Assembly (NCBI GenBank): GCA_041494705.1
Contig: JBGQBI010000004.1
Coordinates: forward strand, 180,001 to 212,000
Length of the DNA: 32,000 nucleotides
Direction: 5' to 3'
From: Candidatus Methanoperedens sp.
GTDB taxonomy: Archaea; Halobacteriota; Methanosarcinia; Methanosarcinales; Methanoperedenaceae
Shown here: positions 1 through 32,000 of the stretch, in pieces
Layout: each line of letters starts with the position of its first letter
How positions within the stretch are numbered: the first letter of the stretch is position 1
The notes under the pieces: generated by a model
Database searches by the model: none
What the model saw: only the letters and a program-made list of their open reading frames with translations
What the model was told of the DNA's origin: nothing
Position numbers and translations under genes: made by a program

Positions 1-190
1 TATTTACAAGATGATCTAATTCAGACAACGAATATGACCATTCATCCCTTTTAAAACTGGTTGAGGAGAAAAATTCCTGGAGATTTTTTACAGGCTTTTT
101 GATTAAATCAACAGAATATTTTCCTTTAGACTTAGAAATTTTTGTAATTAGAAACTCTTTGTATTCTGGTTTTAAGTAATATTGGGGCAA
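1..190 (-). CDS. hypothetical protein, 5' part only (continues past window edge); probable last visible gene of the NurA/HerA/SMC-like operon
   Basis: The minus-strand frame is open for 63 codons down to position 2 with no stop (LPQYYLKPEYKEFLITKISKSKGKYSVDLIKKPVKNLQEFFSSTSFKRDEWSYSLSELDHLVN...). A candidate TTG start at 190..188 lies 12 nt after the TAA of the upstream ATPase gene and 3 nt after an AGGTGAT Shine-Dalgarno-like motif (200..194). It is absent from the ORF track, presumably because the edge truncates it. No motif recognised. Confidence 0.3.
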   Translation of the reverse strand, partial: MPQYYLKPEYKEFLITKISKSKGKYSVDLIKKPVKNLQEFFSSTSFKRDEWSYSLSELDHLVN

Positions 191-202
191 ATCATCACCT
201 AC

Positions 203-2272: not shown

Positions 2273-2394
2273 TATTTTGTCTCCTCCAGAACTCCCTGGT
2301 TTTCAATTACTTTTTTGAGAAATTCGAATTCGTCCTCTTTAAGTAATTTTTTTAGCAGATTCTCCATTTCCTTATCAATTCTCTTTTTTACCAT
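2272..2394 (-). CDS. unannotated 40-aa small protein, translationally coupled on both sides
   Basis: Hand translation gives MVKKRIDKEMENLLKKLLKEDEFEFLKKVIENQGVLEETK*. The ATG at 2394..2392 shares one nt with the TGA of the HerA-like gene (TGATG). The TAA at 2274..2272 shares one nt with the ATG of the SMC-like gene (TAATG). It is below the 60-aa cutoff of the ORF track and fills the inter-ORF gap exactly. Confidence 0.45.
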   Translation of the reverse strand: MVKKRIDKEMENLLKKLLKEDEFEFLKKVIENQGVLEETK

Positions 2395-3941: not shown

Positions 3942-3947
3942 TTATAT

Positions 3948-5000
3948 TCACCCAAACCTTTCTTGATTGATAGTTGATACCAAACCAATTCTTTTCATGA
4001 GTATGTTTAAATTCATCATCTTAATCGATTCCCTAGCAAATTTTTCAGCAATTATAATCGGACGAACTTGAGGATTTTTTTCATCTCCTTGGACGAGGAT
4101 AAGGTAATAAACAAGATTTATTATATTACTCAAAAAATCTATACCATATTTTTCTAAAGTAGAGATATGAAATTCAACTCGTTGGGGGCTAATATCATGT
4201 GGCTTAATATAACAAAAAACTTTACCGTTCTTTGGATTGTGTTTATCCTGATATTGAATAAAACTGGTTCGTTCTCCTTTTTTCAACAAAAGATACGACC
4301 AATGCATATCAGAATTAAAATTATTCTTCAATTTTTCGATATGATCCGTTACAAGATTACTTGAACTGTTTTTCACAATAAAAATTGGAATAAAATCTTG
4401 GTCTAACATCCAAGAATTTAATTTCGTGGTGTGGGAGCTGATCTGTCCACCAATTAATGGCCCGTCAATCATGATGATAGTGTTTTTTGGAAAATATTTG
4501 AAATTTTCCTTGAAAAACTCATCTCGTTCGTTTACGTAGAGTTCTTTTCTTTTACTCTCTACATTATCTGCATGATGAATATATTCAGATTTATCACTGA
4601 TCAGATTCGAACGCGTGAAAAAATTAAAAGTGAGCTTGACCACTGGTAGATAATCATTTTCACCAAGAAAAATAATGCTGTGAGCTGTTAGGTATGAACT
4701 TCCTTCAATAGCTTCAAATTTGTCTATTGATTCATCATATGCAGCGACTAAATAACCATTTTCGATGAGATTGGCACCATCTATTGGAGTTAATGGATAT
4801 TTTTTATCTATATCAAGAAATGATAAAACTCCTTCGGATGAAGGAAATGGATACGAATTAAAATCAACAGATTCTGGGATTGGAACATTTGGTAAATAGA
4901 TATTTTTTTGTTTTAACTCAATTAGGCTTTTAAAAAAATGCGGATGAGTTATTATTTTTCCAAACCCGGATAGAGAATTAGATGGAGACATAAGACACAT
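3948..5000 (-). CDS. NurA-like nuclease (RNase H-like fold), tentative
   Basis: 350-aa ORF immediately upstream of the HerA-like gene, which is the classical NurA-HerA arrangement. The order of acidic motifs fits NurA: 'TPIDGANL' (hDG after a beta strand), 'FLGENDY', 'IIMIDGPLIGG', and C-terminal 'RPIIIAEKFARE'. The start could be the second ATG at 4991. The call rests on synteny plus short motifs only. Confidence 0.5.
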   Translation of the reverse strand: MCLMSPSNSLSGFGKIITHPHFFKSLIELKQKNIYLPNVPIPESVDFNSYPFPSSEGVLSFLDIDKKYPLTPIDGANLIENGYLVAAYDESIDKFEAIEGSSYLTAHSIIFLGENDYLPVVKLTFNFFTRSNLISDKSEYIHHADNVESKRKELYVNERDEFFKENFKYFPKNTIIMIDGPLIGGQISSHTTKLNSWMLDQDFIPIFIVKNSSSNLVTDHIEKLKNNFNSDMHWSYLLLKKGERTSFIQYQDKHNPKNGKVFCYIKPHDISPQRVEFHISTLEKYGIDFLSNIINLVYYLILVQGDEKNPQVRPIIIAEKFARESIKMMNLNILMKRIGLVSTINQERFG

Positions 5001-5063
5001 TTTTATATATGTAGATATTTAAGTATAACCGAATTATATATAAATGTATTGTCTGGCTCTTTT

Positions 5064-5071
5064 AAAAAAAA
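5064..5071 (-). terminator. oligo-T tract (T8 on the minus strand) downstream of the Dam-class methylase gene
   Basis: A run of 8 A on the plus strand gives T8 on the coding strand, 44 nt after the methylase stop, within a 114-nt AT-rich spacer. Archaeal intrinsic terminators are oligo-T tracts. This suggests the methylase and the NurA/HerA operon may be separate transcription units. Confidence 0.3.
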
Positions 5072-5114
5072 GATGGTGATAAATCATAAATATATTTTAT
5101 TTCCAATCATTTTT

Positions 5115-5957
5115 TCATAAATCATAATTATAAATAAATAGTTCTTTACCTTTTTTCGCGGTTCTCTTTACATTAGATAATATTTTTTGATTATTTACTC
5201 CGTACTGTAATTCCCATTCAGAAATTTGTGCAAAGTTGAATAAATCTCTTATTTCAGGTGAGTCATCACAGGTTATAAGCCATCTGTGATTACATTCTTT
5301 CATTAATTTTGCGAAATGTTCATGGTTAAATGATTGGTGCAAATATCCTTTTTTTCCATATAATCTTGATTCACGAGAATTAAAATATGGAGGATCAAGA
5401 AAAATAAATACATTGTCTCCATCCATTTTTATCAAATTTTCATACTCCTCATTTGTAATCTGAACATCTTGCATTAATTCGGTTAAATTTTTTAGCCTTT
5501 CGATAGAAGACATGGTAAATCTTTTTTCAAAAGATTCTTGTGAATATCCTCCAGAGCCGGATAATCCAGAAAAAGTAATCCGGTTTAATACGAAAAATCT
5601 GATTGCAGTTTCAAGCTCAGACTCTTCATTTAAAACTTGAGTTATTAGGCTTTTATGTAAAGATTTACCATCTAATGACTGGTTTTTTATTCTAAGTACT
5701 TCTTCGATTAAATCTTCGCTGTTATCTCTTAGTTGTTTCCAAAAACAAAAAAGATCATAATTTAAGTCATTGATTTTAAATACTGAAGTATCTCTAGCTT
5801 GTTTGGCAGCGATAAATACAGAACCTCCACCAACAAAAGGCTCGCGAAATTCATCAAAATCTATTGGAATTCGAGGCAATATTTTTTTCAAAGCTCTTGC
5901 TTTCCCACCAGGATAACGGAGCGGAGTTCTTATTTTTAAGCCCATATATATCGACAA
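5115..5957 (-). CDS. Dam-class (D12, alpha-class) N6-adenine DNA methyltransferase
   Basis: 280-aa ORF with 'RYPGGKARAL' (Y/W-x-GGK N-terminal Dam motif), motif I 'EPFVGGGSVF' and motif IV 'LDPPYF'. The I-then-IV order indicates alpha class. An alternative start is the ATG at 5945. Confidence 0.85.
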   Translation of the reverse strand: MSIYMGLKIRTPLRYPGGKARALKKILPRIPIDFDEFREPFVGGGSVFIAAKQARDTSVFKINDLNYDLFCFWKQLRDNSEDLIEEVLRIKNQSLDGKSLHKSLITQVLNEESELETAIRFFVLNRITFSGLSGSGGYSQESFEKRFTMSSIERLKNLTELMQDVQITNEEYENLIKMDGDNVFIFLDPPYFNSRESRLYGKKGYLHQSFNHEHFAKLMKECNHRWLITCDDSPEIRDLFNFAQISEWELQYGVNNQKILSNVKRTAKKGKELFIYNYDL

Positions 5958-6063
5958 ATCTTTTTAAATAACAGCCAGTCATCATAAAAACAATAACATC
6001 ACTTAAATGTTACTAAATTTACAACGAGAGTGTTATTTTTACCTATATATTTCATGCACAAAT

Positions 6064-7836: not shown

Positions 7837-8952
7837 TTATCTTTGCGACTCTTTTTCAAACATGCTCCTGAGAGCGCGCGAGGATTTAACGACCTTTTCC
7901 AGAGCAGCCGAACGGGTTTGGGCGGTTGCGAGTATTGTTGTCACCGGTTCATCCTGTGAAACGACAGTTCCCGGTCGCGGTACATCGGCTGCTCTCCCCT
8001 TTTCCATGCATCCTTTAAGCGTATCTGAGACCGTTTTGCTTATCACGGTTTTCTTATCTGCATAAACAATTGACTTGGCCGCAAAACATACAGATTCTCT
8101 TACCTCTGGAAGTTCCCCTGAAAAGGATTTGACATGCGCATCGAAAATGTTTATTCCAAATGTCGGCTCCACAGTATCCATGCTGCCCTGGAAACGCGGA
8201 TTTACCTCGATGACCACTATGCCTTTCTCAGTTTGGATAAAATCCACGCCGTTTGAACCCAGAAGTCCGAATTCAAGAGAAATCTGCTTTGCATATCGTA
8301 CCATTTCATTATTGAATTTTGAATGGAATGGCGTGACGTTGCCGCAATAAGCAAAAGGCAGCCCGGTCAATGAAGGAACGCCTATTAACTGTTCATTCAG
8401 TGCAACCACAAAGGCATCCTCCCCGTTGCTTATTATAGAGGCGCTGCAGGGTATCCCTTCAATATATTCCTGCGCTATGAATTCACGGGCATCGTTTCTC
8501 TCTTTAAAAACAGACAATTCTTCCTCGTTTCTTACGACCATGTTCCGCATCCCTCCCGAACCTGATTTTGGCTTTATCATCAGCGGGAATCCAAGTTCAT
8601 GGGCTTTGTCTATTGATTCTGTTTCAGGATGGGGAATCCCCATCGACAAAAGCTTCCCCGGAAGCTTTGATTTGTCGCTGACCTCTTCCATGACTGCCGG
8701 CGGATTGTTTAATACGTTCTTAAATTTTAATTTCTCATAACCCGGTCCCAGAATCACGGCATCGGACCCACCAAAGGGTCTCGCTAATTCTTGCAATTCA
8801 TTTTCCTGGCTGCTTTTGAAAACCAGGGATTTATCAGAGCAGTTGCATGTGTCCACATCTCCAAAACGGTCAAGAGTAAAAACCGTGTATCCGGCTTTCT
8901 TTGCCGAACATACGATACTGCGGGCGCTGTTGGCTATAACCAGCACTTTCAT
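7837..8952 (-). CDS. ATP-grasp domain enzyme (predicted carboligase, substrate unknown)
   Basis: 371-aa ORF with 'PLMIKPKSGSGGMRNMVV', 'FIAQEYIEG' and 'VIEVNPRFQGS' (ATP-grasp E-x-N Mg site). It has an ATGA start/stop overlap with the upstream trm56-like gene. Confidence 0.7.
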   Translation of the reverse strand: MKVLVIANSARSIVCSAKKAGYTVFTLDRFGDVDTCNCSDKSLVFKSSQENELQELARPFGGSDAVILGPGYEKLKFKNVLNNPPAVMEEVSDKSKLPGKLLSMGIPHPETESIDKAHELGFPLMIKPKSGSGGMRNMVVRNEEELSVFKERNDAREFIAQEYIEGIPCSASIISNGEDAFVVALNEQLIGVPSLTGLPFAYCGNVTPFHSKFNNEMVRYAKQISLEFGLLGSNGVDFIQTEKGIVVIEVNPRFQGSMDTVEPTFGINIFDAHVKSFSGELPEVRESVCFAAKSIVYADKKTVISKTVSDTLKGCMEKGRAADVPRPGTVVSQDEPVTTILATAQTRSAALEKVVKSSRALRSMFEKESQR

Positions 8953-14794: not shown

Positions 14795-14889
14795 ATGTAG
14801 GTAAAATAGTAAACCAAATATATAAAACCTCTTTCAAGGTTTTGGGGAGAAGTCGCTATAGTTTTTGCTCGGTCTTTGTAAAAACGAAG

Positions 14890-14963
14890 CGGGCTGGGAG
14901 GGATTTGAACCCACGGCCGTCGGATTAAGAGTCCGACGCTCTGCCTGTCTAAGCTACCAGCCC
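14890..14963 (-). tRNA. tRNA-Lys (anticodon CUU)
   Basis: Hand-folded cloverleaf on the minus strand. Acceptor GGGCTGG/CCAGCCC has 7 bp. D arm is GCTT-AGACAGGCA-GAGC. Anticodon arm is TCGGA-CTCTTAA-TCCGA (anticodon CTT). The variable loop is CGGCC, the T arm is GTGGG-TTCAAAT-CCCTC with one U-U mismatch, and the discriminator is G. CCA is not encoded. Confidence 0.8.
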
Positions 14964-16306: not shown

Positions 16307-16380
16307 GGTGCTTACAATTTGAAGAGAGGTATAAAATACTTTTGCAGGGCAGTGTGTTTAAAATCTTTTGGTTTGGAAAA

Positions 16381-16445
16381 CCACAGAGGGCACAGAGTTC
16401 ACAGAGAAAAGAGGCAACTCTCTGCGTTCTCTGTGTACTCTGTGG
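16381..16445. repeat. imperfect hairpin built from CACAGAG heptamers
   Basis: The left arm gcacagagttcacagagaa (16390..16408) matches the reverse complement of ttctctgtgtactctgtgg (16427..16445) at 17 of 19 positions. The loop is 18 nt. An extra ccacagag unit lies at 16381. Confidence 0.7.
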
Positions 16446-16507
16446 TAAATTATCCTAACTTTGATTTCGTTGACCCAGAAAAGTCTCTTAAATTTCGCTT
16501 AAAGTAA

Positions 16508-16572
16508 CTTTGCGCTCTTGGCGTGCTTTGCGGTGCAGGATTTTTACCGCAGAGGGCGCAAAGGACGCAAAG
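16508..16572. repeat. imperfect hairpin built from CTTTGCG/CGCAAAG units
   Basis: The left arm 16508..16533 (ctttgcgctcttggcgtgctttgcgg) matches the reverse complement of 16547..16572 (ccgcagagggcgcaaaggacgcaaag) at about 20 of 26 positions by hand alignment. The loop is 13 nt. Confidence 0.6.
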
Positions 16573-16638
16573 AATTTGCTCAACACCAAACCTTTTTACA
16601 GTCCCGCAGCACAATGGAATTTCCCGGAGCGATATGGA

Positions 16639-17480: not shown

Positions 17481-18407
17481 GTGGCGTCTATAACATTTCA
17501 ACAATCCACAAACATAATCAAGCGTGCTGCCCCACCGCCTATCACTAACGGCCGACGAAGGAAGATAATCGCTTTTGGCTGGTATGGCGGGAAGTTCTCC
17601 CATTTAGACTGGTTACTCCCACTACTACCACCTTGTCATCACTTCTGCGAGCCATTCAGTGGTTCTGCGGCTGTCTTACTGAACCGCGCACCGTCTCCAG
17701 TGGAGACCTACAATGACATTGATGGTGAAGTTGTTAATTTTTTCAGAGTTCTTCGAGATCATAAAGACCGCTTAATTGAGGTTATTGGTCTGACCCCATT
17801 CTCACGTGAAGAATTTAGTATGGCTTGTGAGATTGATACAACCACTGACCCAATTGAACGTGCCCGCCGCTTTTACATACGCGCCCGTCAAGTAAGAACT
17901 GGGCTTGCTCAGAGAGCGAGCTTAGGGCGTTGGGCGAACTGTAAAAATACATCCCGCAGCGGGATGAGTGGCGCCGTAAGTCGCTGGCTTGGTGCAGTAG
18001 AGTATCTTCCAGAGATTGCCGTCCGTCTGCTTCGCGTCCAAATTGAAAATCGGCCTGCTGTGAATGTTATCAGGCTGTATGACTCTCCGAAAACTCTCTT
18101 CTATTGCGACCCTCCCTACGTACATATCACCCGCGGCGACCACAACGCCTATTGCGGTGAAATGATCGATGATGAACATAGGGAATTAGCCGCTCAACTA
18201 AATAACGTTGTTGGGAATGTTGCCCTCTCTAACTATGATTGCCCGTTGATGGATGAGTTGTATCCAGAACCTAAATGGTTCAAGAATATCGGCCTAGAAA
18301 AGACAATTCATTCAACAAAGGATATGCGGCAGGAGGTACTTTGGACCAATTACGACCCGTTGGAAGCGATGAAAGCAAACGCCACTATTATGGATGTTGA
18401 CCTATGA
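17481..18407 (+). CDS. Dam-class (D12) N6-adenine DNA methyltransferase of a type II R-M-like pair
   Basis: 308-aa ORF with a GTG start. It carries 'GWYGGKFSHL', motif I 'EPFSGSAAVLL' and motif IV 'YCDPPYVH'. Its stop overlaps the next gene's start (ATGA at 18404..18407). Confidence 0.85.
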   Translation: MASITFQQSTNIIKRAAPPPITNGRRRKIIAFGWYGGKFSHLDWLLPLLPPCHHFCEPFSGSAAVLLNRAPSPVETYNDIDGEVVNFFRVLRDHKDRLIEVIGLTPFSREEFSMACEIDTTTDPIERARRFYIRARQVRTGLAQRASLGRWANCKNTSRSGMSGAVSRWLGAVEYLPEIAVRLLRVQIENRPAVNVIRLYDSPKTLFYCDPPYVHITRGDHNAYCGEMIDDEHRELAAQLNNVVGNVALSNYDCPLMDELYPEPKWFKNIGLEKTIHSTKDMRQEVLWTNYDPLEAMKANATIMDVDL

Positions 18408-19525
18408 GTGCCGAACAAATCCTTAATCGGGCTTTGGCACGTGCACAAGAAAATCTGAGGCAACCAGTGGTTCAGGATACTGCCATTCGTGCACGGCTTG
18501 ACTATGTGTGCCGATGCATTTCTAATCGTGCTGGTGTTCGGCTTTTGATGGCATGCCTCTTAGCTAAAGTAGATCAGCCACATATTGACCCTCGCAAACC
18601 GTACACTGAAATCGGAACTGAAGACTCTTTCTCTGGTCGGACTTACGACGAGCGATATTTGACTCATTTCATCAATGAAAACCAGCTTCCATGCAACCCA
18701 ACAACGGCATTTCTCACTCCAGTGCTACGGAATATCAATCATCCATTGACAATGGATATTGAACTTATAGGAAGACCACGAGATTTATACGTTTATACAT
18801 TGCAATTGCTAGATGATGTTTATCAGAACAGAGTATCTGCAGAAGACCTGCTGGTTGATACAATCAAGTTGCTTATTTTAATAAGAAATGAAACAAGAGA
18901 AAGAATGGCGGCTTTGTTGGCCAAACTACAGTGCGGAGAAGGCGCACTTCCTCTTTCCTCGGAATCTATCGTTACGCTAATCGAGCAGCACCTAGCGTGT
19001 AAAAACTCCAGCCGTCTCCCAGTGCTAATTGTTGCGGCCGCCTATCAAGCCGCCAGTGCGCACCTCGGTGAGTGGTTACGGCCTCTTAATACTCATAACG
19101 CTGCAGATTTACAGACTGGAGCTATTGGAGATGTTGAGATTTGCCTTGTTGGTGAAAATGATGTGGTGACAGCTTATGAAATGAAGATGAAGCGTATCAC
19201 AATTGACGACATCGATACTGCTTTTCAGAAAATTATCCGTTCAGACCCTAAAATAGACAACTACATTTTCATCACAACGGATAGCATTGACGTGACCATT
19301 GCAGAGTACGCCGCCAAGTTTTACGAGGAAACTGGTGGAACAGAGATTGTCATTCTAAATTGCATTGGGTTCCTTAGACATTTTCTGCACTTTTTCCATC
19401 GATTGCGCATGGATTTCTTAAAGGCATATCAGGACTTGGTGTTGAGTGAGCCAGATTCTGCCGTCAGCCAACCGCTCAAGGAAGCATTTCTGGCATTGAG
19501 GCAAGCTGCTGAATCCAATGAGTGA
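18404..19525 (+). CDS. putative restriction endonuclease (PD-(D/E)xK-like motif), specificity unknown
   Basis: 373-aa ORF translationally coupled to the methylase. The segment 'GAIGDVEICLVGENDVVTAYEMKMK' fits the D-x(n)-E-x-K nuclease core pattern. I recognise no other domain. Confidence 0.5.
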   Translation: MSAEQILNRALARAQENLRQPVVQDTAIRARLDYVCRCISNRAGVRLLMACLLAKVDQPHIDPRKPYTEIGTEDSFSGRTYDERYLTHFINENQLPCNPTTAFLTPVLRNINHPLTMDIELIGRPRDLYVYTLQLLDDVYQNRVSAEDLLVDTIKLLILIRNETRERMAALLAKLQCGEGALPLSSESIVTLIEQHLACKNSSRLPVLIVAAAYQAASAHLGEWLRPLNTHNAADLQTGAIGDVEICLVGENDVVTAYEMKMKRITIDDIDTAFQKIIRSDPKIDNYIFITTDSIDVTIAEYAAKFYEETGGTEIVILNCIGFLRHFLHFFHRLRMDFLKAYQDLVLSEPDSAVSQPLKEAFLALRQAAESNE

Positions 19526-24144: not shown

Positions 24145-24408
24145 ATGCAGGGCATCCTGATATATTCTACCAAAAACTGTCCGAATTGCAGGGTACTGAA
24201 GCAATTCCTGGAAAATAAAAATGTACCATTTACTGAGGTAGATATGGCTACCCCGGCGGCATTAACAGAACTGAGGATGAACGGCGTATTTACGATGGCA
24301 GCGCCGGTGCTGCAAGTAGGTAATAAATTCCATACATATAATGACCTGTTTACACAGGACAGGATAAACCAGAACAAACTGGAATCTTTGCTTAAGGAAG
24401 GAAAGTAG
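24145..24408 (+). CDS. NrdH/glutaredoxin-like small redoxin
   Basis: 87-aa ORF. 'IYSTKNCPNCRVLKQFL' contains the CxxC active site at the thioredoxin-fold position. It lies immediately upstream of nrdD. Confidence 0.7.
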   Translation: MQGILIYSTKNCPNCRVLKQFLENKNVPFTEVDMATPAALTELRMNGVFTMAAPVLQVGNKFHTYNDLFTQDRINQNKLESLLKEGK

Positions 24409-24520: not shown

Positions 24521-26917
24521 ATGGGCAAATACATTGAAGTTCAGATATTAAATCTTATGCAGGAACATAAAGGGGAGCTGTTAGATGCGTTCCTGAAGGA
24601 AAAAGAGAAATCTCTTACCGGACAGAAAACCAAAACAGCTCAAACAAGAAAAATACAGACCATCCAGAAAACGCTCGGCGGTTCCCGGATATCGGTGATC
24701 CCCAAGGTGAGGACAACTGACGGGCATCTTATGGACTGGGACAGGAACACCATCGTCAAACAGCTTTTGAAGGAGACAAAACTCTGCGAGCAGTTCCACG
24801 GGATAGCGCCGATAAGCGAAGAGGAAGCAAAAGAGATTGCCAGGGAAACCGAGAAGAGAATAAAGGACATGGGCGTGAAATTCCTTTCAGGGCCGCTGGT
24901 GCGCGAACTGGTCAATATCATACTTCTTGAACGCGGGCATACCGAATGGCGAAATATCTCAACGAGGGTAGGCACGCCTGTTTTTGACGCTTACCGCATT
25001 GATATGGGCACGGGCTTTGAAGCCAACGACAATGCCAACCTCCAGGAGAATGCGGAGACAAGCCACAAGAAAAAAGCGGATAAGATGAGCAAGGAACAGT
25101 ATCTTCTCATGCTCCCGCCGCGGCTTGCGGACTCGCATCTCAACGGCGATATCCATATCCACGACCTTGAATACCTGGGAACGCGCGCTTTCTGCCAGGA
25201 CTGGGATTTGCGGTATTTCTTCTATTACGGATTGATGCCCGATGGCAGCGGCACAAAAGCAAGCGTGGCAGGGCCTGCAAAGAAAGCAGAGGTTGCGATA
25301 CTTCATGCAGTGAAAGCCCTTGGCAGCGCCCAGACGAATTTTGCCGGCGGGCAGGGATTCTATAATTTCCTGACATTTATGGCTCCATTTTTTGAAGGCA
25401 TGGGCTACAAAGAGATAGAGCAGCTCATGCAGATGTTCGTTTATGAAATGACCCAGATGATGGTGGCGCGCGGCGGGCAGCTGGTATTCTCCTCCGTCCA
25501 GTTGTCCCCCGGCGTCCCCAAACTCTGGCGCGATAAGCCTGTTGTTTATAAAGGGAGTGTCTGGGACGGTGTAATGTCCCCCAAACGCACATACGGGGAA
25601 TTCGAGCGCGAGGTCCGCCTCTCGTTTGAAGCGCTGATGAACGTTATGCTTGAAGGCGATTACTGGGGAAAACCGTTCAATTTCCCGAAACCCGAGATAA
25701 GCATCGAGCCTGATTTCATGGTGGAGGATGAGGAATTCAACCGCTCGCATCCTGATATTTTAAGCTACGACGAGCTTTATACGAAGGCGTTTGAACTTGC
25801 CGCCAAGTACGGAGCGCCGTATTTTGACAACCAGCTGCCTGAATACAGGGGCGCGGGGAAGGGCATAAGCTGCTACCAGTGCTGCGCATATAATTTCTCA
25901 TCATCGCTTGAAAAAGACTCCGAGTTTGATGATAAGCTTTATTTCAGGAACGGCAAGCATTTTTCAATGGGCGCCTGGCAGGTAGTATCGCTTAACTGCC
26001 CGCGGGCCGGGTACAAGGCAAAGAAGAACGACGAGGCGCTTTTTGCAGAACTCAGGCAGATGATGGATATGTGCATGGAACTCTTCAAGGTGAAGCGAAA
26101 GTGGATGGATATCGTTATCAAGAATAACAGGATGCCGTTCGCCACGCAAAGACCGAAGGACCCATACACCATGCAGCGCGGCGAAATTGCAGTTGATACG
26201 AAAGGGCTTGTTTATACTATTGGCGTGGTGGGCATCAATGAGATGGTGCAGCACCATACAGGGAAGCAAATCTATGAGAGCGAGGAGGCAAGGAGGCTTG
26301 CCATCCGCGCCATGTTCGAGATGAAGTTCTATGCAAAGGAACTCTCGGAGAAGCACGGCATGGAGATAGCGCTTGCAAGGACGCCTGCGGAGACGACGGC
26401 GCAGAGGTTTGCGGTCTCAGACCTGCTGCACAAGGAATACAGGAAGTGTGCAGAGCCGATAATCAAAGGCAATGTCCCGGAGGCGCTCTCGCATATCCAC
26501 GAGACGCGCGACCTGCCGGTATATTACACCAACGGCACGCATGTGCCCCCGGGTGCTGACGTGACGCTGCCGCAGCGCATCAAGCTTGAGGAGACTTTCT
26601 TCCCGATAGTGGACGGAGGGAATATCCTCCATATCTGGCTTGGCGAGGCTGCGCCTGACCCCCACGGGCTCAAGGAGTTCGCCATGAACATCGCGAAGAA
26701 CACGCAGGTGGGCTATTTTGCTTTCACGAAGGACATGACTGTTTGCATGGATGATTTCCATGTGGCGTCAGGACTGCTGGATGAGTGCCCCAACTGCGAG
26801 AGCGAGAATGTGGAGCATTTGAGCAGGGTGACGGGATATATCCAAGCTGTGAGCGGGTGGAATGAGGGGAAGAAGCAGGAGCTGAAGGACAGGAAGAGGT
26901 ATGGGGTGGGGGTGTGA
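24521..26917 (+). CDS. nrdD: anaerobic (class III) ribonucleoside-triphosphate reductase
   Basis: 798-aa ORF with an N-terminal ATP-cone-like segment ('VRTTDGHLMDWDRNTIVKQL'). The C-terminus has a zinc ribbon 'CPNCES' followed by the glycyl-radical motif 'SRVTGYIQAV'. Confidence 0.9.
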   Translation: MGKYIEVQILNLMQEHKGELLDAFLKEKEKSLTGQKTKTAQTRKIQTIQKTLGGSRISVIPKVRTTDGHLMDWDRNTIVKQLLKETKLCEQFHGIAPISEEEAKEIARETEKRIKDMGVKFLSGPLVRELVNIILLERGHTEWRNISTRVGTPVFDAYRIDMGTGFEANDNANLQENAETSHKKKADKMSKEQYLLMLPPRLADSHLNGDIHIHDLEYLGTRAFCQDWDLRYFFYYGLMPDGSGTKASVAGPAKKAEVAILHAVKALGSAQTNFAGGQGFYNFLTFMAPFFEGMGYKEIEQLMQMFVYEMTQMMVARGGQLVFSSVQLSPGVPKLWRDKPVVYKGSVWDGVMSPKRTYGEFEREVRLSFEALMNVMLEGDYWGKPFNFPKPEISIEPDFMVEDEEFNRSHPDILSYDELYTKAFELAAKYGAPYFDNQLPEYRGAGKGISCYQCCAYNFSSSLEKDSEFDDKLYFRNGKHFSMGAWQVVSLNCPRAGYKAKKNDEALFAELRQMMDMCMELFKVKRKWMDIVIKNNRMPFATQRPKDPYTMQRGEIAVDTKGLVYTIGVVGINEMVQHHTGKQIYESEEARRLAIRAMFEMKFYAKELSEKHGMEIALARTPAETTAQRFAVSDLLHKEYRKCAEPIIKGNVPEALSHIHETRDLPVYYTNGTHVPPGADVTLPQRIKLEETFFPIVDGGNILHIWLGEAAPDPHGLKEFAMNIAKNTQVGYFAFTKDMTVCMDDFHVASGLLDECPNCESENVEHLSRVTGYIQAVSGWNEGKKQELKDRKRYGVGV

Positions 26918-26975
26918 AATTTTTTACAATATATCTGAATTAAAAAGTTAATCAAACAAAGGGTAAAAATGAAAA

Positions 26976-28271
26976 ATGAAATTTAACAAATGTCATCTCC
27001 TTGATGCAAGAAATATTAAAGAAAAAATCAACGATGAAATCGTTGATGTGACGATAACTTCCCCTCCGTATTTCGACATGAAGGATTATGGACACAAGAA
27101 CCAAATTGGTTATGGTCAAGAATATGATGAATATTTGGAAGATCTTAAAAAGGTATTTCAGAATGTCTACGATGTAACAAAGGATACAGGATCTCTTTGG
27201 GTGATCATTGATACATTCAAAAAGAACAATGAAATTGTTCCATTACCATTTGATTTTTCAAATATAATAAAAAAAGTAGGTTGGAAACTTCAGGATATTA
27301 TCATTTGGAACAAAAACAAAACAGTTCCTTGGAGCAACAAAGGACAAACAAAAAACAAGTTCGAATACATTCTGCTCTTCTCTAAATCTAAAAATTTTAA
27401 ATATTATAGGGATCGTGTAAGAGAATACAATACTAAGTTTCTAAAAAAATGGTGGGTTAAATATCCAGAAAGGTACAATCCAAAAGGGAAAGCTTCTGAG
27501 GGAATATGGGATCATGATATCCCAACTCAGGGCTCTTGGGGTAATGGATATATTAAACATTTCTGCCCATTGCCTACAGATATGATTGGAAAAATGATTC
27601 TATTAACTTCTGATGAGAATGATGTTATTTTAGATCCTTTTGCTGGAACTGGTTCAGTTTTGGTACAAGCAGCATGCATGAAAAGAAAATATATAGGTTT
27701 TGAACTTAATGAAAATTATATTACAATGTTCGATAATTATCTTGAGAAATCTTTAGAGAAGGGTTCTAATGATTATAAGGTACTACAGAATGGGAAATAC
27801 GATCAAGAGATATTCGCTACAACAATTTTAAATCTGAGAGCATTAAAATTTGCAAAAGTTCTAAGAAATAAAATCAAGGGGGAACTTCAGGATCTCGTTG
27901 AATTAATATATGTTGAGATTTCAGAGAAAAAACCAAGTGGAAAACACAAAATTATAACGGTAAATTATGATATCATTGTTGATAATCAAAATTTTCTCGA
28001 ATGTCAGAATCCCGAAATAATTTCTTTAAATGAAGAGATAACGAACATAGTTTCAAATCCACCTTTATCTGGTTATGGAATTGAGGCATATTTTAGATAT
28101 AAATATAATAAAATATATTTATCGAATCGTTGTGCAAATAAAGATTTGTTCTTATACTCGTATAATGGTACTCATAAATATATTGGTAAGTTCAATCCTA
28201 AACATAAAATTAGTAAATTCACTATTATAAGTCCTATAAAAGTAGATTTAAACGAAGAAGATTTTGAATAG
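26976..28271 (+). CDS. beta-class N4-cytosine or N6-adenine DNA methyltransferase with ~180-aa C-terminal extension
   Basis: 431-aa ORF. Motif IV 'ITSPPYFDM' lies near the N-terminus and motif I 'ILDPFAGTGSVLVQA' near residue 220, so the IV-before-I order indicates beta class. The C-terminal region (about 250..431) has no recognised motif. The gene is AT-rich. Confidence 0.85.
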   Translation: MKFNKCHLLDARNIKEKINDEIVDVTITSPPYFDMKDYGHKNQIGYGQEYDEYLEDLKKVFQNVYDVTKDTGSLWVIIDTFKKNNEIVPLPFDFSNIIKKVGWKLQDIIIWNKNKTVPWSNKGQTKNKFEYILLFSKSKNFKYYRDRVREYNTKFLKKWWVKYPERYNPKGKASEGIWDHDIPTQGSWGNGYIKHFCPLPTDMIGKMILLTSDENDVILDPFAGTGSVLVQAACMKRKYIGFELNENYITMFDNYLEKSLEKGSNDYKVLQNGKYDQEIFATTILNLRALKFAKVLRNKIKGELQDLVELIYVEISEKKPSGKHKIITVNYDIIVDNQNFLECQNPEIISLNEEITNIVSNPPLSGYGIEAYFRYKYNKIYLSNRCANKDLFLYSYNGTHKYIGKFNPKHKISKFTIISPIKVDLNEEDFE

Positions 28272-28286
28272 GTTAGGTTAATAACT

Positions 28287-29999
28287 ATGTCTAAGAAAAT
28301 AAGAAGCAAGAGAAAGAAATTAAGCCCCGAAGAAAAAAAGAAAAGAAGAGAAGAGACAAAATTTAAGCAGGACATCAAAACAGTTTTTACTAACTCATCG
28401 TTTATTCAAATTCCTACAAGGCATGTACATTTTGAGTTCGTGGGACGGACTGGTGAATTAGATAACGTTTTTTTATTTGAAAATATTCTTATTCTATGCG
28501 AAGACACAACATTAAAAGATAATGATGATCTGAAGGGTCATTTATTAAAAACTGACGATTTTTTTGAGCATATTCGAAATCATAGTATAGAGTTTATTAA
28601 TTTATTGCAGACTAAATTTCCAGAATTTAATGAAAAAAAAAGTCTAAAATATTCTGATGTTGATTATAAATTATTTTTTCTGTATTGTTCGCGCAACCGA
28701 ATAGATAAGACATATGAGGAACGGCATCCCAAAATTAAATTCTTAGATTATCCCTATCTACAGTATTTTTTAAATTTATCCAAGACCATAAGTAGAACCA
28801 CTCGATTTGAACTTTTTAAATTCTTGGGATTAAATTTAAAAGAGATTGGATTACAAAAGAGTGGAGATGATAAGTGTACTTATAGCGGGTTTCTTTTGCC
28901 CGAATCTCCAAGTGGATTTCCGAAGGGATATAAAGTGGTTTCTTTTTTAATAGAACCCAGTAGATTGCTTGAACAATCTTATGTTCTAAGAAAAGATAGT
29001 TGGCGAGATAAGGATTGTCTGTATCAAAGATTATTGATTAAGAGAAAAATAAACAGCATGAGAGCATATTTAACAGACGAGAATAGAGTTTTTATTAATA
29101 ATATCATTGTAACTCTACCAAGCAACACAGAAATTTTTGATATGGATGGCAATCAATTGAAAGTTTCGCAGATATACCAAATGCAACTCATTAATATTCA
29201 ACTAGATAAAGAACTCAATACCATAGGCATAATAGATGGTCAGCATCGTGTATTTACCTATTATGAAGGGATGGATAGAGCTGAGAAACACATCAGTATA
29301 TTGAGAGATAAGCAGCATTTATTATTGACCGGTATTATTTATCCTGAAAATATAACCGATTTAGAAAAAACTAAATTTGAGGCAAAATTATTTTTGGAGA
29401 TAAATGACAAACAAGCTAGAGCTAAAGGCGATTTAAAGCAAGCCATTGAAACTTTAGTAGATCCGTTTTCACCAACTGCAATTGCAAAAAAAATAATAAT
29501 AAACCTCGGACAGACTGGCCATCTTACAAATTTACTTGAGGAACATTTCTATGACGTGGGAAAAATAAAAACAACATCAATAGTGAGTTATGGTATGAAG
29601 CATATCGTCAAATTAAGTGGTAATGATTCATTATTTAGTATTTGGTTAAACCCAGACAAAGAAAAATTGCTTGAACAAATGGATATAAAGTTGTTAGATA
29701 GCTATATTGACTTTTGCACAAAGGAAATTAATAATTTTATCTCAGGATTTAGAATGAATATACCTAAAGAGATATGGACACCTGATAAAAAAACAAGTAG
29801 AGTTTTAACTACTACAACGATTAATGGTTTAATATTTTGTCTTAGGAAGGTAATAGAAAATAAAAAGACTGGAGATATAGACTATTACAAAGAAAAATTT
29901 TCAAGCTTAGAACTTGATTTTACGCCAGAAAAATTTGGATACAAATCTAGTCACTGGAAAGGCTTGGGTGAGGAGATATATTCACAGTGTTTCAGCTAA
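28287..29999 (+). CDS. DGQHR-domain protein (DndB / ParB-like nuclease superfamily)
   Basis: 570-aa ORF starting 15 nt after the methylase stop. The eponymous motif is 'IGIIDGQHRVFTYY', followed by 'LFLEINDKQARAKGDL'. The N-terminal 25 aa are highly basic (MSKKIRSKRKKLSPEEKKKRREETK). Residues ~30..300 are unassigned. Confidence 0.75.
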   Translation: MSKKIRSKRKKLSPEEKKKRREETKFKQDIKTVFTNSSFIQIPTRHVHFEFVGRTGELDNVFLFENILILCEDTTLKDNDDLKGHLLKTDDFFEHIRNHSIEFINLLQTKFPEFNEKKSLKYSDVDYKLFFLYCSRNRIDKTYEERHPKIKFLDYPYLQYFLNLSKTISRTTRFELFKFLGLNLKEIGLQKSGDDKCTYSGFLLPESPSGFPKGYKVVSFLIEPSRLLEQSYVLRKDSWRDKDCLYQRLLIKRKINSMRAYLTDENRVFINNIIVTLPSNTEIFDMDGNQLKVSQIYQMQLINIQLDKELNTIGIIDGQHRVFTYYEGMDRAEKHISILRDKQHLLLTGIIYPENITDLEKTKFEAKLFLEINDKQARAKGDLKQAIETLVDPFSPTAIAKKIIINLGQTGHLTNLLEEHFYDVGKIKTTSIVSYGMKHIVKLSGNDSLFSIWLNPDKEKLLEQMDIKLLDSYIDFCTKEINNFISGFRMNIPKEIWTPDKKTSRVLTTTTINGLIFCLRKVIENKKTGDIDYYKEKFSSLELDFTPEKFGYKSSHWKGLGEEIYSQCFS

Positions 30000-30040
30000 T
30001 TTTTAACTTATTCAGGTTACTTTAATACGATAACCAAAAT

Positions 30041-30110
30041 CATGCTCCTAAAACAAACTGCGCCCCCCTCCTCGAAGAGCGACTCCACTGGCGCAGCCCC
30101 GCTGGCAACC
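30041..30110. repeat. GC-rich degenerate intergenic repeat, copy B
   Basis: Contains the core aaaacaaactgcgccc (30050..30065) and a 7-bp stem ctgcgcc/ggcgcag (30058..30064 and 30090..30096). It resembles copy A by eye (catg..aaaacaa.ct.gcgccc). Confidence 0.3.
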
Positions 30111-30204
30111 TTTCATCTGCGGTTTTTGATGTAGTTTTACCAACATCGTTTTTTGAGAAAGCGCCTTAAATTAATCGTGTTTGATTTATAAAAATTCAAG
30201 GCGC

Positions 30205-30300
30205 TTCATGGAATTCCAGCCCCCTTCAATCCCGTAACTCAACCTCGCCCCCTCCACTCCCGCAAACACACGGCGCCGCCAGACGAGCGCGGCGCCTTGG
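30205..30300. repeat. GC-rich degenerate intergenic repeat, copy C (left flank of hicBA)
   Basis: It starts ttcatg...tccagccccc (30205..30224), like copy D. It contains the core gcaaacacacggcgccgcc (30262..30280). A perfect 8-bp stem ggcgccgc/gcggcgcc (30272..30279 and 30289..30296) encloses a 9-nt loop containing agacg. Confidence 0.4.
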
Positions 30301-30368
30301 ATGGAACTGTAACTACTTACAATCGTAAGAGATGATTATATTTAGATAAAAAACATACAATAGCTACC

Positions 30369-30581
30369 ATGAGAACATTCCTTGTATCCATTCAGAAGGA
30401 AGACAAATTCTTTGTTGCAAGATGCCCTGAGCTTGGTGTAACCTCACAGGGAGAAACCCTTGAAGAAGCGCAGGCAAACATCAAGGAGGCCATCGAACTC
30501 TATATCGAAAGTTTCGGTGAAGACCTGCCTCGCGAGACATCCAAACCTTTCTGGACAACAGTTGAAGTAGCCTATGCCTAA
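30369..30581 (+). CDS. hicB: HicB-like antitoxin (UPF0150-type N-terminal domain)
   Basis: 70-aa ORF. 'FFVARCPELGVTSQGETLEEAQANIKEAIELYIE' is typical of the HicB N-domain. It overlaps the hicA start by 8 nt. Confidence 0.75.
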   Translation: MRTFLVSIQKEDKFFVARCPELGVTSQGETLEEAQANIKEAIELYIESFGEDLPRETSKPFWTTVEVAYA

Positions 30582-30801
30582 ACTGCCTGTAATATCTGGT
30601 AAAGAACTTGTCTCTGCATTAAAAAAGGCAGGATTTGTGGAAGTTCGTCAAACGGGCAGTCACGTTTCTCTTCAAAAAGTCACGCCAGAAATAACCTATA
30701 AAACTGTTGTTCCACTGCATCGGGAACTTGCAAAAGGGACACTTCTTGATATTCTTCATCAGACTGGTTTGAGTAGGAAAGACCTGCTGGAATTGCTTTA
30801 A
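30574..30801 (+). CDS. hicA: HicA mRNA interferase toxin
   Basis: 75-aa ORF. 'ISGKELVSALKKAGFVEVRQTGSHVSLQK' matches the YcfA/HicA dsRBD-like motif with the catalytic GSH. Confidence 0.8.
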   Translation: MPKLPVISGKELVSALKKAGFVEVRQTGSHVSLQKVTPEITYKTVVPLHRELAKGTLLDILHQTGLSRKDLLELL

Positions 30802-30900
30802 TTCATGAAGTGCTCTTAAAAATCCAGCCCCCAAAGCACTCACGCAATCACTGTTCTCCTCCATCCACCAAAACCCTCTGGCCTCCGCGAAAAGCACCCG
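30802..30900. repeat. GC-rich degenerate intergenic repeat, copy D (right flank of hicBA)
   Basis: It starts ttcatg (30802..30807) ... tccagccccc (30823..30832), in the same orientation as copy C. The downstream ctcctccatccacc resembles ccctccactcc in C and ctccatcc in A. Overall similarity is low and judged by eye. Confidence 0.3.
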
Positions 30901-31077
30901 TATATGGGATATGTGATTCATTCTAGATTGAGTACCGTATTTTAGGACGACAGGGAATAAATGCGGAGCAATTTGCCTGATTTATTCTGTTTTTGGAATT
31001 ATAATGACAACTGTTGCTGATTTCTGAACCGATATAAGTAATGAGTTATTTATCAGGTATCAGGTGATACAAAATGA

Positions 31078-31299
31078 ATCACATCAAAAGAAGGAATCGC
31101 CTTTGTCTCTGATAAAGGCAAAGTACAGAAAACAACTCCGGTTCTCAATACGTTGAAGGAGTGGCGTGAGTTTGAATACTCACGGGCACAGAAAACAACT
31201 CCGGTGCTTGAAACACTCGATGCAATGATAGCAAGAGCAGAGCAGGAATTGGCTGCTGAATCGAATAATGAACGAACAGTTAATTTTAGAGGTCGATAA
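31078..31299 (+). other. 73-codon open frame without ATG start, containing an in-frame internal repeat; possible small gene (TTG 31153) or gene remnant
   Basis: The frame is open from the TGA at 31075..31077 to the TAA at 31297..31299, 2 nt before the ATG of the dsrE-like gene. An 18-nt exact direct repeat acagaaaacaactccggt occurs at 31125..31142 and 31188..31205 (63 nt apart, in frame), encoding QKTTPVL twice. The only in-frame alternative start seen is TTG at 31153. Confidence 0.25.
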
Positions 31300-31301
31300 A
31301 C

Positions 31302-31631
31302 ATGACAAATTTATTATTAGTATTGTCCAAAGACCCGTATACAACCGAGATACCCAATCTCGTGCTGGATATCGGTTTAAATGCCAAGGCAAAGAAGGGC
31401 AACAACGTCTCCCTGTATCTTGTGGAGGACGGGGTTACCGCTGCAAGGAAAAGCGAATTCGGAAATAAACTTCAGGATGCTAAAAAGAAAGGCATCAGAA
31501 TTCTCGCAGATGATAAGGCTGTGCAGTCAAGAGGACTTGACGGCAACTTGGTTGCTGGCGTGGAAGTAAAGGAAATAGGCACCCTTCTCGACCACATAGT
31601 TGAGGACAACACGAGAGTGGCATGGTTCTGA
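31302..31631 (+). CDS. DsrE/DsrF/DsrH (TusBCD)-family small protein
   Basis: 109-aa ORF. The size and pattern fit the family ('LLLVLSKDPY', 'LYLVEDGV', 'ILADDKAVQSRGL'), and a second family member follows. Confidence 0.6.
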   Translation: MTNLLLVLSKDPYTTEIPNLVLDIGLNAKAKKGNNVSLYLVEDGVTAARKSEFGNKLQDAKKKGIRILADDKAVQSRGLDGNLVAGVEVKEIGTLLDHIVEDNTRVAWF

Positions 31632-31641
31632 GGTGATAGGA

Positions 31642-32000
31642 ATGGCAAACAACGGCAATAGCAAAACCTTAACAATCGTATCGATAAACGGACCATATCG
31701 CGATGAAGCGGCATATACACTCATCAGGCTCGCCCATGCTGCAAAGGAGAAGGGTATCAATGTCAACTTCTTCAACTACCTTGACGGTACAATAATCGGA
31801 CACCGTGACCAGGGACCGAAGGAGTTCCCTGTTGTGGAGTCACTTTTTGGCACAGTGCTCAAGAAGGGGCTTAAAAATCCTAAGACCGATGCAATCGCAT
31901 GCATAAAATGCACCGATGCCCGCGGTGTGACAAAACAGCAGACTGAAGGCGTAGTCATCGGCGGGTTATATGACCTCGGTGAATGGACAGCGGAATCGGA
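31642..32000 (+). CDS. DsrE-like sulfurtransferase-family protein, 3'-truncated by window edge
   Basis: Hand translation gives MANNGNSKTLTIVSINGPYRDEAAYTLIRLAHAAKEKGINVNFFNYLDGTIIGHRDQ...IACIKCTDARGVTKQ... The 'TIVSINGPY', 'FNYLDG' and 'ACxxCxxxRG' patterns fit DsrE/TusD-like proteins. An AGGTGAT motif lies 4 nt before the ATG. It is not in the ORF track because it runs off the edge. Confidence 0.6.
   Translation, partial: MANNGNSKTLTIVSINGPYRDEAAYTLIRLAHAAKEKGINVNFFNYLDGTIIGHRDQGPKEFPVVESLFGTVLKKGLKNPKTDAIACIKCTDARGVTKQQTEGVVIGGLYDLGEWTAES

Follow-up and report, generated by a model that had tools for sequence, protein, structure and literature searches.

A methylase-DGQHR gene pair inserted downstream of nrdD in Candidatus Methanoperedens: a candidate restriction-modification-like defence module

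A foreign two-gene insert at the 3' end of nrdD

The 32,000-nt stretch of a Candidatus Methanoperedens genome analysed here (hereafter the window) carries a foreign, AT-rich insert of 3.1 kb (26918 to ~30040) directly 3' of nrdD in this methane-cycle-type archaeon. The insert holds exactly two co-oriented genes separated by 15 nt, one encoding a beta-class DNA methylase and the other a 570-amino acid protein with a DGQHR domain (Table 1). The only other open reading frame (ORF) of at least 60 amino acids is a 68-amino acid shadow ORF on the opposite strand. GC content is 29.8% in the insert (26918-30040) versus 45.8% in its flanks, the lowest value among all 3123-nt intervals across the 32 kb. 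Towards the 3' end of nrdD it is 0.52-0.57, over both insert genes 0.27-0.32, and after ~30040 it is back at 0.45-0.48, with a 40-nt GC scan locating the rebound between 30040 and 30060. GC content at third codon positions (GC3) follows the same pattern, at 0.25-0.26 in the two insert genes versus 0.66 in nrdD and 0.53 in argS. An earlier note on this DNA had described the two co-oriented genes 15 nt apart, an abrupt change of composition at the nrdD stop (26917), a return to GC-rich sequence at about 30040 and no integrase or transposase; all of this was reproduced by the ORF list, the spacer and the GC and GC3 profiles, and its spot counts (30 G+C in 26581-26640 and 20 in 27301-27360) proved exact.

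Inspection of ORFs and profiles revealed no integrase or transposase in or adjoining the insert, and scanning the junctions for target-site duplications or att-like direct repeats turned up only short chance repeats. There is no tRNA at the insertion site, the sole tRNA of the window lying at 14889-14963, and an Rfam search of 26000-32000 gave no match. A sigma-70 promoter scan scored barely above shuffled expectation and is uninformative, as the consensus is bacterial and the host archaeal. Four independent assemblies of the organism share the arrangement of methylase and DGQHR protein; among them is a 2.07-Mb contig, which also bears a Methanosarcinales-type S-layer gene.

To place the insert in its genomic setting, 80 metagenomic loci encoding close NrdD relatives were retrieved and the 35 closest (75-97% NrdD identity) were tabulated. 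The methylase and DGQHR gene occur in none of these 35. In 11 aligned relatives, nucleotide homology to the window stops at 26912-26923, which coincides with the nrdD stop, and each relative carries at that point its own, different AT-rich DNA (GC 0.25-0.41). Among this cargo are a C5 methylase accompanied by a GHKL ATPase, DUF488 proteins alongside a RecQ-like DuOB helicase, a DEAD/ResIII helicase, an HD-domain protein, an SMC/AbiEii-like ATPase and several proteins without any Pfam match. Its composition is atypical, it meets a conserved host gene at a sharp junction, close relatives lack it, and they bear other cargo at this site: the segment thus shows the features of a genomic island and is a real, horizontally acquired insertion. 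Because close relatives lack the module and bear different AT-rich defence cargo there, the locus documents the 3' flank of nrdD as a variable defence hotspot in this Methanosarcinales-type lineage.

Domain architecture and pairing of the two proteins

The catalytic core of the methylase spans residues 1-260, with SPPY (residues 29-32) ahead of DPFAGTGS (residues 220-227), and matches PF01555 over residues 23-251 at 157.4 bits (threshold 26.7). This score and the position of motif IV ((S/D)PPY) N-terminal to motif I (FxGxG) assign the enzyme to the beta class, as the earlier note had called it from the same two motifs. Beta-class PF01555 methylases are autonomous enzymes. The nearest solved relatives are TTHA0409, M.MboIIA (N6-methyladenine, m6A), the rotifer N4-cytosine methylase N4CMT and CcrM; since these include both m6A and N4-methylcytosine (m4C) enzymes, the methylated base (m4C or m6A) is not settled by sequence, and they neither bear out nor contradict the tentative lean of the earlier note, from SPPY, towards m4C. 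Beyond the core, residues ~262-431 (window 27759-28268) form a conserved C-terminal domain of ~170 residues that is kept in 120 homologues and is marked by the motifs LNLRALKFAKVL, PPLSKFGIEP, THKY and IISPIKV. This domain has no Pfam or PDB relatives in profile searches. Of the 73 partner methylases classified, 19 (class A, about a quarter) have this domain and the others lack it; it may serve in target recognition or as a surface that contacts the DGQHR protein.

The 570-residue protein carries IIDGQHRV at residues 315-322 and matches TIGR03187 (DGQHR) at 64.7 bits, above the curated NCBIfam cutoff of 58.85 (E=1.1e-17), over residues 219-522 and profile positions 13-275 of 276, which bears out the earlier DGQHR assignment. 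The hallmarks of the DGQHR domain described by Machnicka et al., a QR pair, the DGQHR pentapeptide and FxxxN (PMC4619093), are all present (Q247-R248; D317-G318-Q319-H320-R321; F369xxxN373). They are invariant in 78 of 78 genome homologues, invariant or at least 90% conserved in 112 database homologues, and form the most strictly conserved part of the protein. Scores for the two characterised DGQHR families fall short of their cutoffs, both for DndB (PF14072, 25.6 bits versus 29.1; TIGR04172, 39.7 bits versus 450) and for DpdB (NF041060, 34.6 bits versus 300; a weak PADLOC match of 9.4e-9 over residues 215-323). No match to PF03235, PF07510 or HNH was found in the protein at E<=0.1, and structural matches outside the N-terminal domain were to ParB-like, AIPR and GmrSD_N proteins of the BFVD viral structure library (E down to 4.5e-5). 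Source annotations of the homologues read "DGQHR domain-containing protein" or "hypothetical protein".

Residues 1-215 have no sequence match in Pfam, PDB or PHROGs profile searches. The PDB profile search returned 0 matches at E<=10 for the full-length protein and only chance kinase matches for the N-terminal domain, while a Pfam scan of 35 N-terminal domains taken singly yielded no recurrent family, only sporadic single-member matches such as PDDEXK_10 and Card1_endonuc. AlphaFold2 models of the full-length protein (pLDDT 91.2, pTM 0.84) and of the N-terminal domain alone (pLDDT 88.6) are confident, and the latter shows a helix (14-36), four strands (48-51, 54-57, 60-64 and 67-74), a second helix (79-98) and a further strand (128-135). 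About 45 of the top 50 PDB neighbours of the domain found by Foldseek are PD-(D/E)xK nucleases, with probabilities up to 0.99. They include the R2 restriction-like endonuclease, Cdn1/Card1/Can2, Nt.BspD6I, R.BspD6I, Bax1 and XisH as well as AF1548, SduA, BstEII and arenavirus endonucleases, and a search with the full-length model gave the same picture plus a ParB N-domain. Residues 1-215 are therefore likely to adopt a PD-(D/E)xK (restriction endonuclease-like) fold. In the model, D59 lies just ahead of strand 60-64 and E72, 13 residues further on, sits on the adjacent strand 67-74 of the hairpin; we take these to be the canonical catalytic positions of the fold. D59, E72, N66, H85, Y133, Y160 and E175 are invariant in the 112 and 78 homologues, down to 35% identity, and K88/89, which shares with H85 the helix after the hairpin, is nearly invariant. 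When 1.84 billion representative proteins were searched exhaustively with a profile, the N-terminal domain was recovered in only 347 clusters, and only in the ~560-610-residue architecture of the present family. Among the 150 matches listed, the long proteins measure ~540-660 residues and the rest, at 110-460 residues, are consistent with fragments.

Homologues with 46-64% identity occur in Bipolaricaulota, Planctomycetota, Marinimicrobia, CPR bacteria, Bacteroidota, Proteobacteria, Thermoplasmatota and Methanobacteriota, and 80 genome loci were surveyed, 78 of them with usable flanks. In 77 of the 78 assessable loci, from many bacterial and archaeal phyla, the DGQHR gene has a PF01555 methylase within ~0.5 kb. 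The methylase is directly upstream and co-oriented in 72, the exceptions being one divergent arrangement, three downstream and one methylase 4.5 kb away, and the gap between the two genes is 0-300 nt or the genes overlap. When ORFs within 5 kb on either side were clustered, only the methylase and DGQHR families recurred, the next clusters being opposite-strand shadow ORFs. In the reverse direction, a DGQHR homologue follows six of seven methylases of the class found in the window, the seventh (L190) being solitary and without any remnant of a partner. The synteny elsewhere that the earlier note had proposed to look for is thus present in both directions. No third conserved gene emerged across the 80 loci. 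A TGT-like (dpdA) neighbour is lacking from the window and from these loci, dnd genes are lacking from the window and from L081, and dnd, ssp and dpd genes are all absent from the window and the surveyed loci; the earlier claim that no dnd or ssp genes accompany the pair held for the window and the 80 loci alike.

The pair is also mobile. It lies on a Rhizobium plasmid, where IS66 and a RES-Xre toxin-antitoxin pair are its neighbours, between the integrase and repressor of the Akkermansia phage Chantilly, and, on viral contigs, in five of six intact homologues with usable flanks. Its neighbours include type I restriction-modification (R-M) genes, AbiEii, BrnT, Fic, GmrSD, McrB-like, RES-Xre and HEPN genes, a setting typical of defence islands. 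The methylase and the DGQHR gene therefore constitute a conserved, self-contained, mobile two-gene module. The motif of the partner methylase is SPPY at 66 of 76 loci and DPPY or DPPF at seven; as the partners fall into several lineages, their specificities probably differ. The nearest DGQHR neighbour has a methylase of the same class in 65 of 73 cases, against a mean of 44 and a maximum of 58 in shuffled data, so that the two proteins mostly co-diverge, with clear partner replacements.

Two other accounts of the locus were rejected. Chance adjacency of the two genes conflicts with their synteny across phyla and their co-divergence, and a DndB orphaned from a decayed dnd cluster conflicts with the two-gene architecture of 77 of 78 loci and with the family-specific N-terminal domain. 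Separately, a viral contig (L177, 2189-6065) carries a DGQHR homologue that is N-terminally truncated, starting at about residue 57, and has no PF01555 methylase. It adjoins a complete system of an EcoO109I-like restriction endonuclease (REase) and an HTH-C5-methylase, and looks like a decayed copy inside a defence island.

A putative restriction-modification module and competing explanations

We consider it somewhat more probable than not (roughly 0.55) that the two-gene segment is a horizontally acquired R-M-like defence module with a nuclease gated by a nucleoside triphosphate (NTP) switch. Under this proposal the autonomous SPPY methylase would mark host DNA as m4C or m6A, and the DGQHR protein would be the restriction or effector component, composed of three parts: a divergent PD-(D/E)xK-fold nuclease (D59...E72-x-T74, with H85 and K88/89 on the next helix), a ParB/sulfiredoxin (Srx)-type DGQHR domain that would bind and hydrolyse NTP as a conformational switch, and a helical C-terminal region like those making up the dimer/DNA groove in DndB, GmrSD and SspE. 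The protein would survey DNA, an unmethylated target would cause the NTP switch to license a cut by the N-terminal nuclease, and cognate methylation would protect host DNA. We infer nuclease activity, NTP dependence and methylation sensitivity for the DGQHR protein, the NTP-switch step because a DndB-like protein binds ATP/GTP (bioRxiv 10.1101/2025.10.10.680097), DpdB has ATPase activity (PMC12839542), and the DUF262 ParB domains of SspE and GmrSD are NTPase sensors that activate fused nucleases (PMC12065111).

The evidence leans to restriction because the N-terminal domain has a predicted restriction-endonuclease fold with invariant acidic residues, and because the DGQHR gene is almost never found without a methylase whereas the methylase can stand alone, an asymmetry typical of R-M. 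The context of the pair, with its defence-type neighbours and with other defence-type cargo past nrdD in every relative of the source lineage, supports a defence role. In these respects the module resembles type II R-M systems with a PF01555 methylase, which are likewise mobile two-gene cassettes of methylase and nuclease that turn up in defence islands, plasmids and prophages and whose nuclease gene is hardly ever seen without its methylase. The module differs from them in that its putative nuclease is fused to a ParB/Srx NTP-binding domain, has the motif D...E-x-T in place of (D/E)xK, and matches no REase model in PADLOC or Pfam. To our knowledge, no characterised type II enzyme has a fused ParB/Srx NTP-binding domain. 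That the protein represents a new class of restriction enzyme, in which PD-(D/E)xK (E-x-T) cleavage is gated by a ParB/sulfiredoxin-fold DGQHR switch and not by a helicase, AAA+ or GTPase, making the pair an NTP-dependent two-gene R-M system beside Types I-IV, is a more tentative suggestion, to which we give slightly less than even odds.

Several observations weigh against restriction by an active nuclease. The statistics of the fold assignment are weak (best PDB E 7.5e-3, TM 0.3-0.4), and sequence profiles return only sporadic PDDEXK matches for the N-terminal domain. Threonine (Thr74) takes the place of the canonical lysine in 77 of 78 homologues, and D73 varies. Partner replacement is also awkward: the closest relatives of the window protein (L001 and L004) bear DPPY and not SPPY methylases, and DGQHR proteins that are 61-65% identical may pair with methylases only ~25% identical, swaps that are workable only if target sites are shared or the nuclease itself does not read the sequence. 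In Sphingomonas sp. 7/4-4 (L069, NZ_CP115960.1, 7040-7848), the methylase is spread over two frames; the apparent frameshift, between motifs IV and I, reflects either a sequencing error or a pseudogene. The DGQHR gene downstream aligns over its full length in one piece and is seemingly intact. A further homologue, L176, has no PF01555 methylase within its 5.5-kb contig. A lethal restriction enzyme should not tolerate either situation, unless another methylase covers for the missing one or the assemblies are in error.

The main rival, which we judge unlikely, is a sensor-effector of the Menshen NsnA type acting by abortive infection or NTP depletion. Here a dead REase-fold N-terminal domain would sense DNA, such as unmethylated sites, the DGQHR domain would nick DNA or hydrolyse NTPs, and the methylase would set the self mark. 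The three-part layout is that of NsnA, which combines a variable N-terminal sensor domain (sometimes of REase fold) with a ParB domain and a DndB-C-like helical domain, and the REase-fold domains that NsnA proteins carry at this position as DNA sensors are catalytically dead (PMC12065111), a precedent that also counts against cleavage by the window protein. The replacement of the canonical lysine by Thr74 and the stricter conservation of the DGQHR motifs relative to the rest of the protein fit such a role, and ParB/Srx proteins can nick DNA or hydrolyse NTPs (PMC10853773; PMC12839542). However, the NsnA REase domains lack the acidic residues that the window N-terminal domain keeps invariant, and conservation of D59, E72, H85 and K88/89 across 35-100% identity is unexpected for a decayed active site. 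Furthermore, the locus has no NsnB (ABC ATPase), NsnC or other partner, and the protein has no NsnA hidden Markov model match in PADLOC, which models Menshen.

Two other roles are less likely than the sensor-effector. The DGQHR protein might be a helper or regulator of modification without restriction, limiting the methylase as DndB does or assisting it as DpdB does, so that the pair would form an epigenetic module; we regard this as rather improbable. DndB, an ATP-modulated repressor that limits modification, and DpdB, an ATPase that assists the modifying enzyme, are the only characterised DGQHR proteins (PMC4507180; PMC12839542). The window protein shares with them the ParB/Srx-type DGQHR domain with QR, DGQHR and FxxxN, a helical C-terminal region, a gene adjoining that of a DNA-modifying enzyme and, by analogy, an expected NTP binding. 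Its weak profile matches point to these two families, the tight operon organisation fits, and L069 pairs an intact DGQHR gene with a broken methylase. Yet it lies far below the equivalog cutoffs, has no dndCDE or dpdA nearby, bears an extra 215-residue nuclease-fold domain and is partnered with an ordinary base methylase. Against a helper also stand the autonomy of enzymes of this class and the solitary methylase of the window class, and a specific enzyme-helper interface is hard to square with partners from methylase lineages that share only ~25% identity. Such a role would also leave unexplained the nuclease-fold domain with its invariant acidic residues, the defence-island, prophage and plasmid contexts, and the patchy, horizontally transferred distribution.

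Far less probable still is a type IV-like, modification-dependent nuclease that merely travels with an unrelated methylase and whose ParB-type domain senses modified foreign DNA. The best-studied ParB-fold defence nucleases are type IV enzymes, and GmrSD, BrxU and SspE, like the window protein, unite a ParB-fold NTPase or sensor, a helical middle and a nuclease in one defence polypeptide (PMC4619093; PMC12065111); the BFVD fold matches, too, include GmrSD_N proteins. Those enzymes, however, combine DUF262 (DGQQR) with a C-terminal HNH-DUF1524 domain, whereas the window protein has DGQHR, no DUF262/PF03235 match, no HNH/DUF1524 domain and an N-terminal PD-(D/E)xK-like domain. Its protecting methylase implies the opposite logic, an attack on unmodified DNA, and near-obligate methylase adjacency with co-divergence is a signature of modification-protected restriction.

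The pair does not appear in the defence-system and family libraries searched. The DGQHR protein has no PADLOC-DB 2.0.0 match beyond the weak one to DpdB, no PHROGs family, no Pfam match beyond sub-threshold DndB and none in PDB sequence searches, and literature searches under DGQHR, DndB-like, PF14072 and ParB-like with restriction-modification retrieved no description of the pair. The possibility raised in the earlier note that it had already been catalogued therefore found no support in PADLOC-DB 2.0.0, PHROGs or the searchable literature. Its hedged suggestion of an atypical R-M-like or methylation-regulating module stands, given the profile match, the synteny and the lack of a PADLOC entry. 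The closest parallel in phages, fusions of a ParB-fold NTP-binding domain to a PF01555 (N6_N4) methylase, similarly couples the two, but each fusion is one polypeptide with a canonical ParB N-domain and a presumed anti-defence role (bioRxiv 10.1101/2025.10.10.680097), whereas in the window the genes are separate, the domain is of DGQHR type and a nuclease-fold domain is added. The DGQHR-nuclease theme itself was anticipated, since Makarova et al. (2013) noted in general terms ParB-like COG1479/DGQHR domains fused to PD-(D/E)xK, HNH or HEPN nucleases and linked to R-M (PMC3632139). We conclude that the pair most likely represents a restriction-modification (anti-virus) system of a type not yet catalogued.

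So far, DGQHR proteins are known solely in accessory roles in exotic modification systems, namely sulfur for DndB and 7-deazaguanine for DpdB, and the role of the domain is debated; a fusion with a probable nuclease, paired with an ordinary methylase in a minimal cassette, offers a simpler system in which to probe it. If the protein is a restriction enzyme, a ParB-fold NTP switch would join the known controls of DNA cleavage, and methylases that appear as orphans in annotations would become parts of complete R-M systems. Defence-finding tools would also be missing a model, above all for the archaea and uncultured phyla that are the source of many homologues. Should the new class be real, it would be spread over bacteria, archaea, plasmids and temperate phages and have been missed by PADLOC-DB 2.0.0, PHROGs and Pfam.

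The nrdD hotspot and other loci in the window

A conserved non-coding block directly beyond the insert recurs, as judged by blastn, in three relatives (L101, L104 and L105), 4.5-6 kb past their nrdD and beyond their cargo, which places the right boundary of the insert between 30000 and ~30112. The block has no Rfam match and contains an inverted repeat of 14 nt (AAGCGCCTTAAATT / AATTCAAGGCGCTT) spanning 30159-30206; it may mark the hotspot boundary, serve in recombination or act as a terminator. Between insert and block, the GC-rich hairpin is terminator-like and on the minus strand. The hicB and hicA genes, which overlap by 8 nt, come directly after the insert. As hicB is kept 6.8 kb past nrdD in another relative (L099), it belongs to the right flank of the hotspot.

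The earlier remark that nrdG is missing holds: the gene is absent from the whole 32-kb window. Its absence was not caused by the insertion, since nrdG is likewise not found 3' of nrdD in the close relatives aligned and inspected. A glutaredoxin-like (NrdH-type) gene at 24145-24408, directly upstream of nrdD, is kept in all close relatives, and nrdG is unlinked in this lineage.

Table 1. Features of the insert, its flanks and the AT-rich island at the left end of the window (positions in the 32,000-nt window).
Feature	Position	Strand	Evidence or remark
nrdD (anaerobic ribonucleotide reductase)	24521-26917	+	PF13597 E=6e-162; TIGR02487 578 bits
Left junction and AT-rich leader of methylase gene	26918-26975	+	GC 0.57 to 0.31; no flanking direct repeat
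Beta-class DNA methylase, 431 aa	26976-28271	+	PF01555 E=7e-46; PADLOC MTase_II 2.5e-50
Intergenic spacer, 15 nt (GTTAGGTTAATAACT)	28272-28286	+	operon-like gene pair
DGQHR protein, N-terminal domain, aa 1-215	28287-28931	+	predicted PD-(D/E)xK-like fold
DGQHR domain and helical C-terminal region, aa 216-570 and stop	28932-29999	+	TIGR03187 64.7 bits
Right junction	30000-30111	.	AT-rich tail to ~30040, then GC-rich hairpin 30061-30081
Conserved non-coding block, inverted repeat 30159-30172 / 30193-30206	30112-30254	.	blastn matches; outside insert
hicB-hicA toxin-antitoxin pair	30369-30801	+	PF07927 HicA 3e-17, HicB-like match; context, outside module
Dam-type methylase	5115-5957	-	island 1-6000
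NurA-like protein	3948-5000	-	island 1-6000
HerA-like ATPase	2394-3941	-	island 1-6000
689-aa protein, no Pfam match	203-2272	-	island 1-6000

Other relatives offer further glimpses of the hotspot. In L105, a 132-nt copy of the nrdD 3' end (7909-8040), 84% identical to window 26787-26918, sits ~290 nt past the intact nrdD and just before the cargo; it looks like the scar left where an element integrated into this end of the gene, a hint of how the hotspot operates. Cargo in L092 (9911-13706) and L101 (11360-12217) includes tandem DUF488 proteins followed by a 947-residue protein with DuOB, HEAT repeats, RQC and HRDC, which is RecQ-like without an obvious helicase-core match, and may be an uncharacterised defence cassette.

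Elsewhere in the window, positions 1-6000 form a second AT-rich island with its genes on the minus strand (GC 0.28-0.39, GC3 0.21-0.31), which looks like another methylase-linked HerA/NurA defence cassette. In a third methylase-linked pair, of host-like GC, a Dam-type (PF02086) methylase (17481-18407) overlaps a SacI-N-like restriction endonuclease (18404-19525). Finally, a sequence of ~120-230 nt near the start of a HAD-hydrolase ORF (16377-16603) matches intergenic sequence located elsewhere in L090 (341-458) and L095 (11026-11096) at 78-90% identity, a similarity that suggests a small dispersed repeat or mobile element of the lineage.

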